Below, one piece after another: positions 19,208-30,423 of a stretch of 32,348 nt of DNA (position 1 is the stretch's first letter; every line of letters begins with the position of its first letter). This DNA is from a virus (taxonomy: Duplodnaviria > Heunggongvirae > Uroviricota > Caudoviricetes). The stretch lies in the IMG/VR virus record IMGVR_UViG_2537562189_000010. One strand, written 5' to 3'. The notes beneath the pieces were generated by a model. The model saw only the letters and a program-made list of their open reading frames with translations. It had not been told where the DNA came from and did no database searches. The position numbers were made by a program, and so were the translations under genes.

Positions 19208-21034
19208 ATGCGCCGCCATAATGGGCGCATGGCTAAATATTCTGACGAAATCAAAGAGGCGGCGCGATCGCTTTACCTGAAGCGGTGGCACCCCCGCGAT
19301 ATTGCGGCGGAACTCGGTATTCCGCCGCGCACGGTTTACCACTGGTGTGATGTGGGGCAGTGGGCTACCCTGCTGCCCGCTGAATCCGTTGAGGACGTGA
19401 TCGCCCGGCGTATTGATGTGCTGACCGGACGGGAGGGCAAGACAGAGTGTGAACTTGCCGAACTGCGTGAACTTATCGCGCAGCACGTGAAGATCATCGC
19501 CCAGAAAAACAAACACGCTGAAAGGATGGCGGAAATTGCCGCCCTGCGTCCGGCAGGGTATGAGGACGGCACGGCTGCGGGGACCTGCGGCGGGGGAGAA
19601 GGGAAAAAGCGGCGCTACCGGAAAAACGACGTTTCCGGACTGACTGCTGAAATGCTGGATGAATGGGCGCGTAAAAAACTTTATGCCTACCAGCTGCACT
19701 GCCGCGAGAACCGGCACCGTGAGCGCCGTTTCATCCTCAAGAGCCGCCAGATCGGCATGACCTGGTATTTTGCATGGGAGGCGTTCGAAGATGCGGTGGT
19801 GACCGGTGATAACCAGATTTTCTTTTCTGCGTCACGGGTACAGGCGGAAATCTTTCGTGAATATATTATTAACTTCGCCCTGCAGTTCGGGATCACGCTC
19901 ACGGGTAAGCATATCCGTCTGAGCAATGGTGCAATGCTGCGTTTCCTGTCCACCAATGCCAGTACCGCCCAGGGATTTAACGGCCACCTTTACGGCGATG
20001 AGGTGTTCTGGATCCCAAAATTCACGCGACTGCATGAAGTGGCCTCGGCAATGGCGACCCACGACAAATACCGCACGACGTATTTTTCCACACCCAGCGC
20101 CAAAACCCACCAGGCTTATCTGGTCTGGAATGGTGACGACTGGCGCGGGGATGATCCGGCGCGCCGTGCTGTTGAGTTTCCGAAAGAAAGCGCGATGCGT
20201 GTGGGCTGTGAATGCCCTGACGGGATCTGGCGCTACATTATCCGGCTGGAAGAGGCGGTGGCGGGTGGCCTGTCTGCACGGGTTGATATTGAACGTATCA
20301 GGAACCGCTACAACCCGACCACCTATGCGATGCTGTACGGCTGCGAGTTTGTTGACAGCAAGGATGCGGTATTTAAGTTCTCCGAACTGGTCAGGTGTGA
20401 GGTGGAGATGGAGACGTGGGGTGACTACGATCCCACGGCGGCACGTCCGTTCGGCAATCGTGAGGTGTGGGCGGGCTTTGACCCGTCAAGGTCCGGGGAT
20501 AATTCCACGTTTGTGATTGTGGCCCCGCCTGTCCATGAGGGCGAGCGGTTCCGTGTGCTCGCTGTCTGGCAGTGGCAGGGATTTAACTTCACCTGGCAGG
20601 CCGATCAGATCCGCGAACTGATGCAGCGCTTTAACATTACCTATATCGGCATAGATATCACTGGTATCGGGAAAGGGGTGTTTGATATCGTCAGTCGCTT
20701 TGCGCCACGTGAGGCTAACGCCATTCTTTACAGCGTGGAGAGCAAAAACCGCCTGGTGATGAAAATGATAGACGTGGTGGCCCATAAGCGTATCGAGTGG
20801 GCGAAAGACGCCATTGATGAGGCCAGCCGTGAACGCACGGAGATCCCCGCGTCGTTCATGTCTATACGCCGCACCACCACAAAAAGCGGTAACGCGCTGA
20901 CGTTCGTGGCGGAACGGTCGGATGTTACGGGGCATGCGGATGTGTTTTTTGCCATTTCGCACGCCGTGATTAATGAGCCTGTAGATTATGACTATGAACG
21001 CCCGTCCACATGGGCCTTCGGGAAAGCCGCATGA
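19208..21034 (+). CDS. P: terminase large (ATPase) subunit (P2 gpP-like); alternative start at Met8 (19229)
   Basis: 608 aa, divergent from the head operon; its stop overlaps the portal start (ATGA); order and size match P2 gpP. Confidence 0.8.
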   Translation: MRRHNGRMAKYSDEIKEAARSLYLKRWHPRDIAAELGIPPRTVYHWCDVGQWATLLPAESVEDVIARRIDVLTGREGKTECELAELRELIAQHVKIIAQKNKHAERMAEIAALRPAGYEDGTAAGTCGGGEGKKRRYRKNDVSGLTAEMLDEWARKKLYAYQLHCRENRHRERRFILKSRQIGMTWYFAWEAFEDAVVTGDNQIFFSASRVQAEIFREYIINFALQFGITLTGKHIRLSNGAMLRFLSTNASTAQGFNGHLYGDEVFWIPKFTRLHEVASAMATHDKYRTTYFSTPSAKTHQAYLVWNGDDWRGDDPARRAVEFPKESAMRVGCECPDGIWRYIIRLEEAVAGGLSARVDIERIRNRYNPTTYAMLYGCEFVDSKDAVFKFSELVRCEVEMETWGDYDPTAARPFGNREVWAGFDPSRSGDNSTFVIVAPPVHEGERFRVLAVWQWQGFNFTWQADQIRELMQRFNITYIGIDITGIGKGVFDIVSRFAPREANAILYSVESKNRLVMKMIDVVAHKRIEWAKDAIDEASRERTEIPASFMSIRRTTTKSGNALTFVAERSDVTGHADVFFAISHAVINEPVDYDYERPSTWAFGKAA

Positions 21035-22083
21035 GCAAGAAACGCAGAAACAAAACGTCACGCGTGACGAAAAAATCATTCACGCCCGCACGTGGCAGCA
21101 CAATCACCTTTGGCCAGCCGGAACCGGTGCTGACCACCGGCACGGACTACCATAACATCTGGTATGACAACGAACACAACCACTGGCAGCTGCCGATTAA
21201 CCGCCTGGCACTGGCGCAGCTCCCGAACCTTAACGCCCAGCACGGTGGGGTGCTGTATGCCCGCCGTAACATGGTGGCGGGGGGCTATACCGGTGGTGGT
21301 CTCACAACGGACCAGATGGAACAGGCGGTATTTGACTACCTGTTATTCGGCGATCTCGCCCTGCTCAAGGTGCGTAACGTATTCGGCGACGTCGTGGCTC
21401 TTGAGCCGCTTCCGTCGCTGTATCTCCGGCGCCGCAAAACCGGTGAGTTCGTGGTGCTTCAGGAAGGCCCCGCGCTGGTCTATACGCCGGAAGATATTAT
21501 CTTTCTGCGGATGTATGATCCGCGTCAGCAAATTTACGGGCTGCCGGATTATATCGGTGGCATTCACTCGGCGCTGCTGAACAGCGAGGCCAGCCTTTTT
21601 CGTCGCCGTTACTACAACAACGGGGCGCATATGGGGTTTTTGCTGTATACGAACGACCCTGGGATCACCACGGAGATGGAGGATGAGATCCGCGAGAAGG
21701 TGGCGGAGTCTAAGGGGCTGGGAAATTTCCGCAATCTGTACATCAACATCCCCAAAGGTTCGCCGGATGGAGTGAAAATTATTCCGATTGGTGAGGTGAG
21801 CGCCAAGGATGAATTTTCAAACATCAAGGGGATCAGCGCCCAGGATGTGTTTACGGCACACCGCTTTCCTGCCGGTCTTGCGGGGATCATCCCCACGAAC
21901 GGAGCCACCATCCCTAACCCGGAAACGACGCGTGAAACGTACCGCAAGGATGAGGTGATACCGCTTCAGCGTAAAATCATGAACGCCGTGAACAGCGATC
22001 CCGATATACCGGAACACCTTTATCTTTGTTTTGATGTGGAAGCCGGGCATGTGGCGGAAGAAAAAGCGGTACCGGTCGGGTAA
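21031..22083 (+). CDS. Q: portal protein (P2 gpQ-like)
   Basis: About 350 aa, translationally coupled to the terminase gene; ORF track 21010..22083 with the coupled ATG at 21031. Confidence 0.75.
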   Translation: MSKKRRNKTSRVTKKSFTPARGSTITFGQPEPVLTTGTDYHNIWYDNEHNHWQLPINRLALAQLPNLNAQHGGVLYARRNMVAGGYTGGGLTTDQMEQAVFDYLLFGDLALLKVRNVFGDVVALEPLPSLYLRRRKTGEFVVLQEGPALVYTPEDIIFLRMYDPRQQIYGLPDYIGGIHSALLNSEASLFRRRYYNNGAHMGFLLYTNDPGITTEMEDEIREKVAESKGLGNFRNLYINIPKGSPDGVKIIPIGEVSAKDEFSNIKGISAQDVFTAHRFPAGLAGIIPTNGATIPNPETTRETYRKDEVIPLQRKIMNAVNSDPDIPEHLYLCFDVEAGHVAEEKAVPVG

Positions 22084-22120: not shown

Positions 22121-22384
22121 ATGCGGATTTTTAAAGCCCGGTGTCCTGACTGTGGCGCACCTGCTGTCATCCGGAAGACAGACTGGAAAACCCCTGAACT
22201 TGCGGATCTGTACTGTGCATGCAGTGATGTCGAATGCGGGCATACCTTCGTCTGTACGATGACCTTTTCCCATACCCTCAGCCCCGGCGCCCGCTCCGGT
22301 CGCAATATGGTGAAGTTTCTTGTTGATGCCATGCGCCCGGAAGATCGCCGGTATGCACTTGAACTTCTGTCGCGGCGTTCCTGA
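22121..22384 (+). CDS. ogr: Ogr/Delta-family zinc-finger late transcription activator
   Basis: 87 aa from the ATG at 22121 (GGGAGG Shine-Dalgarno 4 nt upstream); CPDC...(21 aa)...CACSDVECGHTF matches the Cys-x2-Cys...Cys-x4-Cys Ogr zinc finger. Confidence 0.75.
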   Translation: MRIFKARCPDCGAPAVIRKTDWKTPELADLYCACSDVECGHTFVCTMTFSHTLSPGARSGRNMVKFLVDAMRPEDRRYALELLSRRS

Positions 22385-22410
22385 CGCGCTTCGCTTGTCT
22401 GCTGCTTCGC

Positions 22411-22435
22411 CGGGGCAAAAAGAATTTTTGCCCCG
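22411..22435. other. 25-bp perfect palindrome CGGGGCAAAAAGAATTTTTGCCCCG between convergent transcription units
   Basis: Read directly; forms a 10-11 bp hairpin on either strand; lies between the end of ogr and the end of the early operon. Possible bidirectional terminator or protein site. Confidence 0.45.
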
Positions 22436-22503
22436 ACTCACCAGCTCTCTTAACGGAATGCGGCGGGCGCTTTTCTTTGTAAATTAGTGTGCCCAGTCCC
22501 ATG

Positions 22504-22731
22504 CTACCTGTCCGCAGGGATCTCCTTATTTGTGTGGTTATGTATCTGTTGTAGATATTTCATCTTCCGAATGATGTCGGCTTTGACTTCAGGGTTGTCA
22601 ACGTTCAGGGTCGCATTACCGTTTGCGTCAACAATAAGTCGGTATTTTGCTGTTTGCTCCAGATTTGTATCAACATGTGATGCTACCGCATCCGTGTATC
22701 GGCGTAGTACTTTCCAAATAAGTGTTGGCAT
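22504..22731 (-). CDS. hypothetical protein, 75 aa (last gene of the early operon)
   Basis: ORF with a GAGGAAGAG Shine-Dalgarno upstream of the ATG; no recognisable motif. Confidence 0.5.
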   Translation of the reverse strand: MPTLIWKVLRRYTDAVASHVDTNLEQTAKYRLIVDANGNATLNVDNPEVKADIIRKMKYLQQIHNHTNKEIPADR

Positions 22732-22797
22732 ATCTCTTCCTCGTGGTTAGTGACTAACTTTTACCACATCTCATCTTTTTATATGTTTTCCTTTCGG

Positions 22798-22962
22798 TCA
22801 CGAGAGCAACCAGATAACCGCAACGGTTGCCGCGAAAATTCTGGCGATAAAGCCTGCTGTGAAGTGGCGAAACGGGTTTTCCCACGTCAGGAATGCCATT
22901 AAAGCAATCCATGCAATGGTAAAAATCAGTGCGCCCTTAACGGCGATAAACAGTTCGTTCAT
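22798..22962 (-). CDS. small hydrophobic membrane protein, about 54 aa (approximate coordinates)
   Basis: Hand-translated: MNELFIAVKGALIFTIAWIALMAFLTWENPFRHFTAGFIARIFAATVAVIWLLS, preceded by AAGGAGG; below the ORF-track length cutoff. Confidence 0.45.
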   Translation of the reverse strand: MNELFIAVKGALIFTIAWIALMAFLTWENPFRHFTAGFIARIFAATVAVIWLLS

Positions 22963-23036
22963 TGTGGTGTCCTCCTTTGTGTGTCAGGCGAATAAATTGC
23001 GTTGCGGTGAAAAAAATCAGGTGCGCCAGCGCAGCC

Positions 23037-23192
23037 TTACTGCTGACGGCGTTCCCGGAGTTCGGTCAGTGCTGCAAGTAAATTCTCCCACCACGTTTCT
23101 TCCACGACCGGGTTTTGTCGTGAAAGTAGCTGCTGCGCCGACTCAATCATCTTCTTCAGGTCTTTGTCGCTGATCCTTCGGGGATTGTTCAT
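23037..23192 (-). CDS. small protein, about 51 aa (approximate coordinates)
   Basis: Hand-translated: MNNPRRISDKDLKKMIESAQQLLSRQNPVVEETWWENLLAALTELRERRQQ; its ATG overlaps the stop of the upstream 134-aa ORF (ATGA). Confidence 0.4.
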   Translation of the reverse strand: MNNPRRISDKDLKKMIESAQQLLSRQNPVVEETWWENLLAALTELRERRQQ

Positions 23193-23593
23193 GGTGTGTT
23201 CCTTCTGTTGGCGGTTGAATGCACATAGCGGGCAATTGCCGCTTTGCGGTTAATTGTGACCAGTGTTCTGGTGAGTTCTGCGTTGTGTTTGTGTGCCTGC
23301 TCTTCGTGGTACTGCCGCATGATTTTTCCGGCAGGCGTGAGCGGCTCCGGCTCCCCGTGCGGACGGCGCGGACGAACGGCGACAAGCCAGCTGCGGTTAG
23401 TGCTGTCCGGTCGTCCGTTGAGTATGTCGGTGATGATGGCCGTGGTGGTGCGATCGGGACTGACGACTGTGATTTCCAGCTCATCGCCGGGTTGTGGTCC
23501 CGTGGCAATGTTGTTCAGGGTCAGTAAGGGCGTGCGCTGGCGCATCATTTCGTCAAAGCGCTGGCGCTGCATGGCGCAATAAAAGCGGGTCAT
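23189..23593 (-). CDS. hypothetical protein, 134 aa, translationally coupled to the replication gene
   Basis: Start codon overlaps the stop of the replication gene (ATGA); function unknown. Confidence 0.45.
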   Translation of the reverse strand: MTRFYCAMQRQRFDEMMRQRTPLLTLNNIATGPQPGDELEITVVSPDRTTTAIITDILNGRPDSTNRSWLVAVRPRRPHGEPEPLTPAGKIMRQYHEEQAHKHNAELTRTLVTINRKAAIARYVHSTANRRNTP

Positions 23594-26109
23594 TGTGGCG
23601 CCTCCGTATTCGGTGCGGGGGTGATATCAATGCGGCGGGTGCTGTCGTTCCAGTGCGCGGTGCGCCCGTCAGCCAGGCGCACGCGGGCACCGTGCCGGAC
23701 GGAAACGACGGCGCTTTCATGCAGCTGCACGCCCAGCGCATCAAGCTCGCGGGTGATTTGTGCGGTGATGTGTGGCTCAGCGGTCAGTGCGACACTCACG
23801 CGAACGCCGTCAGCGGGCGCACTGATGCCGCCGTTTTTCACGGTTTCCGTGTCAGGTGGCGGGTTTTTCAGCTGCCTGGTGAGTTGTTTTCGCTCTGTGG
23901 GGGTCAGTGACCTTAACCATTCACCCAAATCACCTTCAGGCAGGGTAAGTCGCTGCTCCCTGCGTTCGTCCGGCTGCCTTTCTGGCGGGTCGTTTATGGT
24001 CAGATTCTGGTCAGGGGGACAGTTATTGCCACGAGTCCAAGGTGCGGCAAAGCCGCACTCAACGTCAAAACCCTCGTCCGTGCGGTCTTCGTTTTCCGGC
24101 TTACGTCTGACCAGTTTCCAGGTGTCCGGGTGGGTGCATATGGTGTAGCGCTCCCCGAGTGACGGGGCGCGGACGCCGTAAATACGTTGCGGGAATTCGC
24201 CGTAGTCGTTGGCCTCTTCGGCAGTTTCGTATGCGGTGCGGACCAGGTACGTGTTGCGGGGAATGAGCACACCACCCTGGCGGGTGATATAGGTGGCAAA
24301 ACATCCCACGTCGGCGGCGGCCAGTATGGCGTCAATGTCGTCATGGTCCAGACGCTGCGGGGCAGCCGGGTTACGGGCCATCTGCCCGGCAAGGCGGCGG
24401 AGTTCGCGCCATACCTGGCGGGGCGGGATACCGAAGAACTGGAACTGGCGGATGCGGTGAAGGGCAGCCCAGCCGATGGCGTTCTCCACGGTTTCGGCCA
24501 TGGTTTTGCCTGATTCCTTATCGACGTAAGGTTTGCCGGTTTTCGGGTCATTCCCCATGAAGGCGCTGGCGTCCAGGTTCTTACCGATATAGGTCGCGAT
24601 ATAGCTCGCCGGTGTGCCTTTTGCCGGGTCGATTTTTTCGCATTTAAAACGCGGGGAGATATCATCACCCAGCTCTGCGCGGTCCTCCCTGATGGCGGCG
24701 TTGCGCATGATTTCAGTGATACGGGCTTCGTTTTCCGGGCTGGTGAATACCAGCATGTGCCAGTGCGGTGTACCGTCGTGGTGGGGCTCCACTGTGCGCA
24801 CGCCGTACCAGCCCAGCCCGGCCTTGTTGATGGCCCTGCGGACGGCGGCGAAAAAGCGGTAAACCAGATAATCACTGGCATCACGTACCGTTGCTCCGCA
24901 GTATTTCGGGTTCAGGCTGCCGTCATCGTTCACGCTGTGAAAACGGGAAGGGGCTGTGACGGTGACGAAAAACGCCAGGTCGCCGCGTGCTTCGGCGACC
25001 TGCTCCATTCCCCGGACGCAGGCCATCATCTCGTTACGGCGGTTACGCGGATTAGAGAGACCTGCCCAGTAGATATCCTCAAGGCTGAACCGTTCTCCTT
25101 CTTCGTTCTCGATGTCCCAGGCCTTCAGAAAATCGCGGGTGCGCTGGCGTTTTTCGCGCCAGTCCAGTAACGCTTCATGGCTGATATATACCGACGTCTT
25201 ACGTGACACCAGGCCTGCGGCGCGTAACAGCTCTTCACGCCAGATGTCCCGGAGGTGTCTTAACTGACTGTTCCACCATGTCGCACAGGAAAGGCGCATG
25301 ACCGCACCCGGCACCTGTTCCGGGTCGGGGGCGGTGCGGCGGTCGGGCCTGATTTCCAGCGACGGCCAGCAGGGTGGCGTGATACCCAGTTTTAACGCCA
25401 TGTGTGCCAGTGGCTGGTAGGTCAGTAACCAGGTGAACAGGTCATCGTCACCCCTGCCGGTCTTTTCGATGACCTCATCACATGCGCGCTCCAGTGCGGT
25501 GGAAAACGCGGTGGCGGTCAGGGTGGCAAGGCGCTGGATTTCGTCACGGCTCAGCTGCGGCAGCATAAGCAGTTCATCCAGCCGTTCGCGGGCGGCGGTG
25601 GCCTTAAAGGCCGGGGTGGCAAAGCGTTCATTCACACGGGCGATACGTTTCAGGCGGGCACGCAGCCCGTGACGAACGAAGTTATCCGCCGCGTATGCGC
25701 TGTTGTTCTTAAGCCCTTCCCGGCGTGCGCTCTCCTGTTTGCGGCTCAGGCGTGCCAGGTCCCGGATGAGCGGACCGGCAAGAAACGGCGGCAGGGCGCG
25801 CAGCTCCGCCATGGCTTCAGATACCAGTGTGGGCGGATTTTCGCGTTTGTGTCGCGCCAGTTTTTCCAGTCTGATCCGACGCTCTTCGTCGTGGTAAAGA
25901 TGCGAATTAATTCGCTTCCCTTCGTCTGTGGTTGTCAGAAAGGCGACGGTTTCTTCATCCAGTCTGGCGTCAGTGCGAATGTCCTCGTTGATGTAGCTCT
26001 GAATGGCCTGGCGTAATGCAGTTGGCTGTGCCCTGCCGAACGTTTCAGGATCGATAACCGGCAGCGGGGCGTTCCACGGGTACGCCAGTTGTGCGTTATG
26101 GTCGCTCAT
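23590..26109 (-). CDS. A: rolling-circle replication initiator, HUH endonuclease (P2 gpA-like)
   Basis: About 839 aa from the first ATG (ORF track 23590..26118); contains ...GTPHWHMLVF..., the HUH metal-binding motif of P2 A / phiX174 A-type initiators. Confidence 0.85.
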   Translation of the reverse strand: MSDHNAQLAYPWNAPLPVIDPETFGRAQPTALRQAIQSYINEDIRTDARLDEETVAFLTTTDEGKRINSHLYHDEERRIRLEKLARHKRENPPTLVSEAMAELRALPPFLAGPLIRDLARLSRKQESARREGLKNNSAYAADNFVRHGLRARLKRIARVNERFATPAFKATAARERLDELLMLPQLSRDEIQRLATLTATAFSTALERACDEVIEKTGRGDDDLFTWLLTYQPLAHMALKLGITPPCWPSLEIRPDRRTAPDPEQVPGAVMRLSCATWWNSQLRHLRDIWREELLRAAGLVSRKTSVYISHEALLDWREKRQRTRDFLKAWDIENEEGERFSLEDIYWAGLSNPRNRRNEMMACVRGMEQVAEARGDLAFFVTVTAPSRFHSVNDDGSLNPKYCGATVRDASDYLVYRFFAAVRRAINKAGLGWYGVRTVEPHHDGTPHWHMLVFTSPENEARITEIMRNAAIREDRAELGDDISPRFKCEKIDPAKGTPASYIATYIGKNLDASAFMGNDPKTGKPYVDKESGKTMAETVENAIGWAALHRIRQFQFFGIPPRQVWRELRRLAGQMARNPAAPQRLDHDDIDAILAAADVGCFATYITRQGGVLIPRNTYLVRTAYETAEEANDYGEFPQRIYGVRAPSLGERYTICTHPDTWKLVRRKPENEDRTDEGFDVECGFAAPWTRGNNCPPDQNLTINDPPERQPDERREQRLTLPEGDLGEWLRSLTPTERKQLTRQLKNPPPDTETVKNGGISAPADGVRVSVALTAEPHITAQITRELDALGVQLHESAVVSVRHGARVRLADGRTAHWNDSTRRIDITPAPNTEAPQ

Positions 26110-26522
26110 GCGTCGCACTCCCCGGCAGTTGCCGCCTGAAACGCCGCGCGGTACAGCACGAGAAGGCGCTGGTATTCACCGATAAAGTCTTCTGCGGTGT
26201 ATATGCCTTTCACGGCCACGCTGTGCGTTGTCATTTCCAGAACCAGCGCCATTTCTGACGACGACCAGCTGATGGCGGTGCTGTCGGTTCCGTTGATGTG
26301 AAATAAACCAAAGCCATCACCATCGCCTTTTACGTCCACGCGGTAACGGTCGTCAACGGTGAAGGAGAAATCCCCGTATGTGGTGACGCGTCCGGCGGCC
26401 TGTTTACAGGCGCGGCGGTAATAGTCGTGCCAGTCGTTCAGGCGGGAAGCCAGCCGGGGATCCACTGCCCACATCCAGTTAAAAAAATCCTGAATATCTG
26501 AAAGTCCCTTAACGCTCTTCAT
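26106..26522 (-). CDS. hypothetical protein, 138 aa, directly upstream of and coupled to the replication gene
   Basis: ATG preceded by GGAGG; its stop overlaps the replication gene ATG; its ribosome-binding site lies at the boundary of the tandem repeat. Confidence 0.5.
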   Translation of the reverse strand: MKSVKGLSDIQDFFNWMWAVDPRLASRLNDWHDYYRRACKQAAGRVTTYGDFSFTVDDRYRVDVKGDGDGFGLFHINGTDSTAISWSSSEMALVLEMTTHSVAVKGIYTAEDFIGEYQRLLVLYRAAFQAATAGECDA

Positions 26523-26590
26523 GAGAACCTCCGGTAACAGACGTGCGGAAGCCTCCCGCGCACGTGTGCGGGATGGCTTCAGGATGTTGT

Positions 26591-26818
26591 TTAGTGGTGG
26601 TGTTGCTGGTTGATAAGGTCCTGCAGTTCTGCCAGGTCTTCGGCCAGATAGCTGAAGACTGCCGCGTAATACCCGGCAGCGATACCGTCGTTAAGTCGGT
26701 GTAATACGTTTGACTGCATGATGAAGGAGACAGATGCAGCCCGATGGAGTCTGCGGTTGATTTCTGTGCGGATGTGAAGACGCTCAGCGCGGGCGCGCTG
26801 TTGTTTGCGGTTTGCCAT
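26591..26818 (-). CDS. 75-aa Arg-rich protein, copy 1 (unknown function; candidate RNA-controlled effector)
   Basis: Identical in protein sequence to copy 2 despite synonymous nucleotide changes; AAGAGG Shine-Dalgarno; basic N-terminus, acidic C-terminus ending in HHH. Confidence 0.7.
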   Translation of the reverse strand: MANRKQQRARAERLHIRTEINRRLHRAASVSFIMQSNVLHRLNDGIAAGYYAAVFSYLAEDLAELQDLINQQHHH

Positions 26819-27132
26819 GGTGTTTGGCCTCTTGTAGTAAGTTGTGAAAACTCACCAACCCGAGGCGGTAATCTCAGGGTGGCGAGACGTACAGGGTTAC
26901 CACAACCGGCTACAAGAGATCCCGGCCCGACCGAAGTCGGCCCCGTACGCCCCGCCATAATTCTGACGCAAAAAAGACGTGGCGATACAGTACGCACAAA
27001 AAAACCGCTGGCGCGGTTGTGCGCTCTTGTAGTCGGCGGGGTGGTAATCCCGGCACCCGTTTTATGAGGTGCGGGAAAACTGTAACCCGACCAGGCGAAC
27101 GCTGGCAAGCGGTTTTTTTGTGTGTGCATGGA
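26819..27132 (-). ncRNA. structured leader / antisense-type regulatory RNA region, copy 1 (c4/CI-like architecture)
   Basis: CTCTTGTAG (about 26829-26837) and again (about 27024-27032) are each the reverse complement of CTACAAGAG (about 26911-26919); GGTAA/TTACC inner pairing; minus-strand hairpin plus T7 terminator; UUCG-loop hairpin. Confidence 0.5.
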
Positions 27133-27202
27133 GAACGAACCTCCGGTAACAGACGTGCGGAAGCCTCCCGCGCACGGGTGCGGGATGGCTTCAGGATGTT
27201 GT

Positions 27203-27430
27203 TTAGTGGTGGTGTTGCTGGTTGATAAGGTCCTGCAGTTCTGCCAGGTCTTCGGCCAGATAGCTGAAGACTGCCGCGTAATACCCGGCAGCGATACCGT
27301 CGTTAAGTCGGTGTAATACGTTTGACTGCATGATGAAGGAGACAGATGCAGCCCGATGGAGTCTGCGGTTGATTTCAGTCCGGATGTGAAGACGCTCAGC
27401 GCGGGCGCGCTGTTGCTTGCGGTTTGCCAT
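27203..27430 (-). CDS. 75-aa Arg-rich protein, copy 2
   Basis: Same protein as copy 1; the only nucleotide differences are AAA/AAG (Lys), CGC/CGG (Arg) and ACA/ACT (Thr). Confidence 0.7.
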   Translation of the reverse strand: MANRKQQRARAERLHIRTEINRRLHRAASVSFIMQSNVLHRLNDGIAAGYYAAVFSYLAEDLAELQDLINQQHHH

Positions 27431-27745
27431 GGTGTGGCCTCTTGTGTAGTAAGTTTTGAAAACTCACCATCCAGAGGTTGCAATTCTGGGTGGTGAGACG
27501 TACAGGGTTGCAACCACCGGCTACACAAGACCCCGGCCCGACCGAAGTCGGCCCTGTACGCCCCACCATAATTCTGACGCGAAAAAGATGTGACGATGCG
27601 GTACGCACAAAAAAACCGCTGGCGCGGTTGTGCGCTTGTGTAGTCAGCGGGGGTTGCAATCCCGGCACCCGTTTTATGAGGTGCGGGAAAACTGTAACCC
27701 GACCAGGCGAACGCTGGCAAGCGGTTTTTTTGTGTGTGCATGTTC
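27431..27745 (-). ncRNA. structured leader / antisense-type regulatory RNA region, copy 2
   Basis: Segments CTTGTGTAG...GGTTGCAAT (about 27441-27485 and 27635-27660) are both complementary to GGTTGCAACC...CTACACAAG (about 27507-27529); the Shine-Dalgarno of the ORF lies inside the downstream segment; terminator (about 27609-27635) and UUCG hairpin (about 27535-27554) on the minus strand. Confidence 0.5.
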
Positions 27746-30192: not shown

Positions 30193-30423
30193 TTATGCCC
30201 AGTTGTCTTTTCTTATTACTGTTTCATTCTGAAATCCTGTCTGCTCCATTGCATTTTTTAAGGACTCTTCTGTTTCAAATGTCACAACGATGCAATGGGT
30301 CGGGTAATGGAAATACAAATCGTTGCCAGCCCGAACAATGGCATCTAAGTTCTGATTACAGATTATTACTGAAGCGTCGTCGCTTATTTTTATTCTTTGT
30401 CTGATTTCCGTGTGTTTAATCAT
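30193..30423 (-). CDS. hypothetical early protein, 76 aa
   Basis: First ORF downstream of the cox-like gene; no motif recognised. Confidence 0.4.
   Translation of the reverse strand: MIKHTEIRQRIKISDDASVIICNQNLDAIVRAGNDLYFHYPTHCIVVTFETEESLKNAMEQTGFQNETVIRKDNWA

Follow-up and report, generated by a model that had tools for sequence, protein, structure and literature searches.

The interval between the replication gene and the packaging region of an Escherichia coli P2-like prophage carries four small open reading frames (ORFs), which we interpret as a mosaic of real, independent genes and not as one system. The stretch analysed (hereafter the window) is the 32,348-nucleotide (nt) IMG/VR record IMGVR_UViG_2537562189_000010. 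The ORFs are named o134, o51, o54, and o75 after their lengths in amino acids (aa), A denotes the replication gene, and labels of the form L001 denote related loci fetched for comparison. With a probability of about 0.72, the interval comprises a backbone gene like Orf91 of phage P2 (o134), a gene at the border of backbone and cargo (o51), a small membrane cargo gene (o54), and an orphaned component of a two-gene cassette (o75). The argument against one system is that the genes are distributed independently across 26 related loci. The locus type has already been described, and the value of the window is as a worked example of the erosion and reshuffling of a hotspot.

Distribution of the Four Genes

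The 26 related loci include 23 IMG/VR loci, retrieved with a profile of o134. Within this set o134 is present throughout (26, partly by construction), o51 in 13 loci, o54 in four, and o75 in two. With each gene following its own distribution, the "cluster of four small coupled genes" described in the original prediction, which was made from the window alone, breaks up. The same prediction placed the interval at the position of the P2 tin/old locus and expected its content to vary, and in both respects it was right. The four ORFs lie between A (23590..26118) and the portal gene (21010..22083), with ogr interposed, and content differs among close relatives. Twelve prophages from E. coli complete genomes, with flanks at 94–95% nucleotide identity, fall into three arrangements: all four genes (3 of 12), a 187-aa protein in place of o75 (3 of 12), and a winged-helix gene annotated MarR replacing both o54 and o75 (6 of 12). 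Examined by synteny, the four genes are not a universally conserved set with a known replication or packaging role, the case that the prediction itself had set against its proposal.

In the IMG/VR loci measured, between 369 and 3746 base pairs (bp) separate o134 from ogr or the portal gene. Cargo in the relatives includes SSB, a ClpX zinc-finger protein, an Ead/Ea22-like protein and a Ren-like winged-helix protein, along with insertion-sequence-like stretches judged by eye.

If all four were accessory genes for replication or packaging, conserved in this phage group, it would be natural for o134 always to adjoin A in translational coupling and for o51 to be well conserved. We consider this very improbable, as o54 and o75 are rare and replaceable, so that synteny already contradicts it for these two, o51 is missing from half of the loci, and unrelated genes follow A in other P2-like phages (ParM, DUF7415, a methyltransferase).

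Coding Status of the ORFs

The ORFs are genes and not chance frames. All four lie on the minus strand directly downstream of A, as originally described (o134, 23189..23593; o51, 23037..23192; o54, 22798..22962; o75, 22504..22731), and each has a Shine–Dalgarno motif 5–9 nt upstream (GGAGG for o134, AAGGAA for o51, AAGGAGGA for o54, and GAGGAAGAG for o75). Pairwise ratios of nonsynonymous to synonymous substitution rates (dN/dS) against homologues are 0.13–0.41 for o134, 0.04–0.49 for o51, and 0.07–0.33 for the o75 family; these three are under purifying selection. Between o54 and its closest relative, in L001, there are two synonymous changes and one nonsynonymous change, too few for an estimate of selection. 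All four proteins recur residue for residue in 151–213 E. coli contigs each, and six sampled assemblies carry an interval identical to that of the window (0–1 single-nucleotide polymorphism). Their very short length, the absence of family annotation and the scarring of the region by recombination might suggest that noncoding hotspot debris has given rise to some or all of these frames by chance. This is extremely improbable given a Shine–Dalgarno motif at four of four ORFs, dN/dS well under 1 for o134, o51 and the o75 family, a confident structural model of o134, and the retention of o54 at 91–98% identity with only one nonsynonymous change.

The earlier statement that none of the proteins has a recognizable motif agrees with the family scans, in which no Pfam, NCBIfam or PADLOC family scores above threshold for any of the four; weak matches to WAV3_C, DUF6404, PetN, and Cas8a in these scans were dismissed as chance. 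Three of the proteins (not o54) match PHROGs, all of them without assigned function, and by tblastn none of the four found a match among 50,697 phage records. Homology searching and structure prediction, which had been proposed as a check, yielded three PHROGs and an ASCH-like model of o134; they yielded no match to Tin, Old or a PADLOC defence family.

o134, the Counterpart of P2 Orf91

The first gene after A is the counterpart of P2 Orf91 in the phage backbone and is not tin/old cargo. It adjoins A in all 26 related loci, and an ATGA overlap joins the stop of A to the start of o134 (23590–23593 in the window) in 23 of 23 IMG/VR loci, with GAGG (AAGG in one locus) ~8 nt upstream. In P2, Orf91 likewise directly follows A and is joined to it by an ATGA overlap at 30316–30319. 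The AlphaFold model of o134, built on the family alignment, has a predicted local distance difference test (pLDDT) score of 85.6 and consists of a six-stranded barrel with one helix (residues 1–75) followed by a single long, basic helix (87–131). The barrel has the PUA-like/ASCH beta-barrel fold, the best structural match of the model is 3iuw, a solved relative of P2 Orf91, and Foldseek against viral models returned several DUF3850/ASCH phage proteins. Orf91 itself matches Pfam DUF3850 (1e-16) and ASCH (2e-10), and 3iuw by sequence (5e-11).

Orf91 and o134 are thus both the first gene after A, both ATGA-coupled, and both of ASCH/PUA-like fold (o134 by model), and they differ in that o134 carries an extra C-terminal helix of ~45 residues. 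Because position, coupling and fold agree, we regard o134 as the fold-level and positional counterpart of Orf91, probably as a very divergent homologue, and do not count it among the members of the Pfam family. Counting it with tin/old-type cargo, as was first done, does not fit this assignment or the conserved ATGA coupling to A, and the case illustrates that a backbone gene of the Orf91 type can be mistaken for cargo. In the tables of hotspot content given by Rousset et al. (2022, PMC9122126), a "DUF3850/ASCH" gene appears in many arrangements, and Orf91 is included under "old-tin".

The o134 family is narrow, with 35 clusters among 5.8 billion proteins, and all source-named matches are from E. 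coli. Against 1.84 billion representatives, the o134 profile found three real clusters only, with no remote relatives and no link to ASCH, and a scan of contigs with this profile, one genome per species, found no relatives. When compared with the window, o134 is about equally diverged in L012–L015 and L009–L011 (70–71% identity, the match statistics of L012 being those of L009–L011), with A at 53% and 74% identity, respectively. Unequal divergence of A combined with near-equal divergence of o134 points to recombination at or near the boundary of the two genes.

We predict that o134 would be translated by stop/start coupling from A. From what is known of ASCH/PUA-like domains, the protein may bind RNA or single-stranded DNA, possibly as a non-essential helper of A-dependent replication or in the handling of early transcripts. 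That ASCH-fold proteins are repeatedly found as partners of A-type initiators is a modest lead in its own right.

o51 and a 52-nt Deletion

The second gene, o51, encodes a small hydrophilic protein with two helices read by eye and stands at the border of backbone and cargo. It matches phrog_14672 at 8e-30 and is found in 13 of the 26 loci at 86–96% identity, even where o134 is only 51–58% identical. In half of the o51-bearing loci it is ATGA-coupled to a downstream gene that is absent from the window and encodes a 103-aa winged-helix protein related to the lambda Ren-like exclusion protein (phrog_142, 1.3e-28; MarR_2 weak). In the window, by contrast, o54 stands after o51. The o51 protein itself matches nothing of known function, and its sequence search of the Protein Data Bank (PDB) gave chance matches only. 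An Ead/Ea22-like motif, a candidate in o51, was dropped for want of a Pfam match. We predict that o51 is a small, probably helical protein at a recombination border.

The original prediction had described the first two ORFs as linked by ATGA overlaps, which occur at the A/o134 and o134/o51 boundaries. Both are real, the second joining the o134 stop to the o51 start at 23189–23192, but the o134/o51 overlap is specific to this lineage and results from a deletion. Alignment A6 of the window with L001, L002, L003, and L016 places the loss of 52 nt between o134 and o51, with its junction between 23205 and 23204 (23193..23216, minus strand); the o134/o51 spacer in relatives is ~46 nt. The deletion rewrites the last residues of o134 and fuses its 3′ end to the ribosome-binding site of o51. 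As read from the aligned sequences, the second overlap is a recent accident and not ancestral operon design, a reminder that ATGA coupling can come from a recent deletion.

o54, an Independent Membrane Gene

The third gene, o54, encodes 54 aa behind a strong AAGGAGGA ribosome-binding site. Its first description as a predicted membrane protein is upheld by two hydrophobic segments with Kyte–Doolittle 19-residue means of 2.23 and 1.94 and a grand average of hydropathy (GRAVY) of 1.29. No Pfam, PHROG or PADLOC family was found for it, and tblastn in sequenced phages was empty. It is present in four of the 26 related loci and in only three IMG/VR contigs, but is often encountered in E. coli drafts; the 90% cluster to which it belongs comprises 20 members, all named ones being from E. 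coli. In L002 and L006 it occurs without o75, with other genes after it, which makes o54 an independent cargo gene. We predict that o54 spans the inner membrane with two transmembrane helices; no other cargo gene of the interval is intact. At low confidence, it would act at the membrane, for example in superinfection exclusion.

o75, the Remnant of a Two-Gene Cassette

The last gene before the packaging side, o75, corresponds to the small first component of a two-gene cassette (phrog_3630; for example SEN5_46/47 and HYP83_gp13/14), in which a 58–74-aa protein is paired with a 258–281-aa membrane protein carrying an Sm-like domain. Unlike these cassettes, the window lacks the large component, of which a few codons remain. 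The o75 proteins form seven clusters in the 5.8-billion collection, and in five of the seven (those examined beyond the window's own) a 263–268-aa membrane protein comes next with a 1-nt stop/start overlap. The cassette is always last before the portal side and is hosted by P2-like phages of Citrobacter and E. coli with differing replication modules, including P88-like phages with ParM. Identity of o75 to the E. coli and Citrobacter small components is 68–92% (alignment A3; 69–93% by BLASTP). More distant small and large pairs occupy the same hotspot in Salmonella phage SEN5 and Klebsiella phage ST15-OXA48phi14.1, lie at the end of an Aeromonas P2-like prophage, or stand alone in Pantoea and Photorhabdus chromosomes, and a core motif is common to o75 and the small proteins of all five. 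The model of a 263-aa partner comprises several N-terminal transmembrane helices and a C-terminal Sm-like barrel.

The deletion of the partner is visible in alignment A2. Homology of the window and L001 to the cassettes begins 45 nt upstream of o75 and ends after the first codons of the partner. L001 keeps ATGGCACCACTCATCATCA, which are the partner's first codons in L029 and L030, and then continues into conserved noncoding DNA beside ogr. In the window, the remnant of the partner's 5′ end (ATGGG...) lies at 22481..22502 on the minus strand, giving ~7 remnant partner codons at the junction. By blastn, homology to L029 and L030 stops before the o75 stop codon, and a further 11-nt change in the window alters the o75 C-terminus. 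The gap between o75 and ogr is 119 bp, leaving o75 without the downstream partner that characterizes the cassette. With the partner deleted and the junction visible, we conclude that o75 is the leftover of a cassette; the lone small gene is the stump of a two-gene unit, as may be true of others like it. What is left would be a regulator or antidote-like gene, perhaps a functionless one.

Being mobile and always paired, the cassette resembles, as far as context suggests, a toxin–antitoxin or abortive-infection pair. No PADLOC or Pfam assignment was obtained for the partner apart from one sub-threshold DUF6338 match for its most distant member, and among PDB sequences neither the o75 family nor the partner profile found anything beyond chance matches. 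A UniRef label on one partner homologue ("SMODS-associating 2TM beta-strand rich") was not reproduced by Pfam and is unverified. Cassettes were located in L029–L038, L039, L040, L051, L053, and L055, and form a candidate defence or toxin–antitoxin module absent from PADLOC and Pfam. A widespread, unnamed cassette of small protein and membrane/Sm-like protein in P2 hotspots is a modest lead for the cataloguing of phage defence.

Two other interpretations of o75 deserve attention. The orphan could be retained as an antidote or anti-defence factor against the cognate membrane effector of competing P2-like prophages or of the host. The small gene alone outlived the deletion, which is the usual fate of antitoxin-like partners, its frame is intact behind 45 nt of conserved upstream DNA and a ribosome-binding site, many assemblies carry it unchanged, and other P2-like phages commonly have the cassette in this hotspot. 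We nevertheless judge retention as an antidote unlikely, as nothing indicates that the partner is toxic or defensive (no PADLOC or Pfam match), the o75 C-terminus is altered in the window, and the changes relative to L001 (seven nonsynonymous against four synonymous) hint at relaxed constraint. Alternatively, o54 and o75 could be a newly assembled two-gene module of membrane effector and small soluble regulator, acting in exclusion, abortive infection or as a toxin–antitoxin pair. The two genes are adjacent with a 66-nt spacer and strong ribosome-binding sites on both, the natural partner of o75 elsewhere is also a membrane protein, and the arrangement persists stably in at least 150 E. coli contigs. 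Such a module is unlikely in view of L002 and L006, where o54 is followed by genes other than o75, and of o54 being unrelated to the 263-aa partner and having no Sm-like domain; the junction after o75 also shows that the pairing came from deletion and recombination and did not arise as a unit.

Weighing the Mosaic

Several observations weigh against the interpretation of the interval as an Orf91-like backbone gene followed by border, cargo and remnant genes. By sequence, o134 has no detectable similarity to Orf91, DUF3850 or ASCH (hhalign probability against Orf91, 0.1), no Pfam match at E ≤ 1, including PF12961 and PF04266, and no match of its profile among PDB sequences. Orf91 has a charged motif at its first helix/strand, EGKKRAEFRKKDR, for which the o134 counterpart by eye is QRTPLLTLNN; the G-K-x-x-E-x-R type motif of Orf91 and 3iuw is apparently missing in o134, with K, E or R at none of the invariant columns there (by eye, from the sequences of alignment A1 and of the Orf91/3iuw alignment). 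Given the lack of sequence similarity and the missing charged motif, homology of o134 and Orf91, as opposed to convergence, is unproven. Alleles of o134 and A are also not strictly congruent (L012–L015, A 53% and o134 70–71% identical). For o75, the four synonymous and seven nonsynonymous differences between the window and L001 are too few to show relaxed selection, and retained function would fit an orphan that is intact and unchanged in many E. coli assemblies. Structure models cover o134 and the 263-aa partner, with o51, o54, and o75 assessed by sequence; promoter and terminator statements come from simple scans, and the roles suggested for all four genes derive from fold and context.

A bolder joint reading would take the cassette as an undescribed, mobile module of toxin–antitoxin-like or abortive-infection type, resident in P2 hotspots and on enterobacterial chromosomes, with the prophage keeping o75 as an antidote against rivals or host, and o134 as a cryptic, sequence-unrecognizable ASCH branch serving A-type rolling-circle initiators. 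We regard this combination as speculative and unlikely.

A Reduced Hotspot at the Probable End of the Early Operon

The gpA–gpQ region is a published variable defence hotspot of P2-like phages, in which tin and old reside in P2 and cargo averages 3.2 kb (Rousset et al. 2022, PMC9122126). It is also treated in a 2026 study in Nucleic Acids Research, according to which unknown genes at such loci often prove defensive (six of eight tested in P4) and ~19% of P2-like prophages have no identifiable defence genes, yet carry unknown genes at these loci (PMC13586616). The window shares with the P2 tin/old hotspot its position between A and the portal gene, its variable content and relatives with recognizable defence cargo. 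It differs in that its cargo amounts to 804 bp with no Tin, Old or PADLOC-recognized system, in that ogr stands between the portal gene and the hotspot, and in the orientation of the genes, which are co-directional with A, whereas tin and old have their own promoter on the other strand. PADLOC found no defence family among the four proteins, one chance-level match aside, and P2 Tin and Old, compared with the window by tblastn, reached best E values of 0.16–0.44, which is chance level. The hotspot of the window is thus in a reduced state (804 bp), without a complete recognizable defence system, and any defence or exclusion role of the four genes is putative.

Among the relatives, the hotspot of L013–L015 carries a Rosmer-like pair consisting of a 381-aa XRE/M78 peptidase (PADLOC RmrA, 3e-35) and a 183-aa PIN protein. 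The pair lies ~680–2340 nt past the o134 stop in L014/L015 and ~1950–3600 nt past it in L013, which has extra inserted DNA, and the peptidase gene of L015 is split by a frameshift. L013 and L018 each have ~1.3 kb of extra DNA in the hotspot, apparently an insertion sequence. In other P2-like phages, the first slot after A holds a 173-aa DUF7415 protein (L037/L038, 2523..3044) or, in P88, ParM/ParR partition genes (L028, 7545..8504). Since unrelated genes directly follow A elsewhere, the A-proximal slot is itself exchangeable across the wider family.

In simple scans, no convincing sigma-70 promoter turned up in the spacers, nor any terminator from A to o75. A terminator after o51 was suspected by eye and received no support from RNA folding, which also gave none after o54; Rfam returned no RNA family in the interval. 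The only strong hairpin in the interval is at 22401..22445 (unstranded), between the convergent o75 and ogr, with a 13-bp stem (GGGGCAAAAA/TTTTTGCCCC, GC/A-T; inverted repeat I1 and RNA fold; region z −2.2), and it is likely a bidirectional terminator ending the A–o75 transcription unit. In the absence of an internal promoter or terminator, the four genes are most simply the tail of the early operon, and we predict that the early (replication) transcription unit ends with this interval. With no promoter of their own detected and an orientation co-directional with A, expression of these genes in the lysogen is not evident, and a function at that stage is less obvious than for tin and old.

This setting bears on the proposal, put forward in the original prediction, that the four genes constitute one coupled accessory operon for superinfection exclusion or anti-phage defence, like tin/old. 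The location in a published defence hotspot (PMC9122126), four co-directional genes with short spacers and one shared terminator, and the defensive nature of many unknown genes at such loci (PMC13586616) are in keeping with it. The proposal is improbable all the same, because the genes vary independently of one another (o134 is in every locus, o51 in half of them, o54 in four, and o75 in two), o75 is elsewhere part of another cassette, o134 is a backbone gene of the Orf91 type, and the four genes have no PADLOC match and no detected promoter of their own.

Flanking Features of the Window

The interval is bordered upstream by the replication initiator gene A (23590..26118, minus strand), which encodes 842 aa, matches Pfam Phage_GPA at 1.9e-106, is 33% identical to P2 A and is annotated as replication endonuclease in RefSeq relatives. 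On the packaging side, the large terminase gene (19208..21034, plus strand) is followed by the portal gene in the gpQ position (21010..22083, plus strand; portal annotation in RefSeq relatives) and by the gene for an Ogr/Delta zinc-finger late activator (22121..22384, plus strand; Pfam Ogr_Delta, 1.3e-15), which forms the border of the interval. The ogr gene directly follows the portal gene and faces the hotspot, whereas in P2 it is at the opposite end of the late region.

The hairpin is contained in a 69-bp noncoding element (22379–22447), the only match in nucleotide searches of phages, which is 92–94% identical in P88-like (Xuanwuvirus) phages. Matches to the element occur in more than 1,100 E. 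coli genomes, with different genes at its flanks. The 69-bp element may be part of cos or the packaging region, but no P2-type cos was recognized in the window, the best match to the 19-nt P2 cos being 13 of 19.

A tandem duplication with a unit of 612 bp occupies 26525–27742, its two copies being 89–98% identical by segment. Within each unit are an ORF for a 75-aa "derepression protein" (26591..26818 and 27203..27430), a C4 antisense RNA (RF01695; 80 and 78 bits in the two copies), and an isrK RNA (RF01394), so that the immunity and antisense-RNA region is doubled. A 410-aa ORF at 26509..27741 was rejected as a gene, being an artefact of read-through across the duplication. Two derepression genes are also present in the E. 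coli assemblies L045 and L050, and one in most assemblies.

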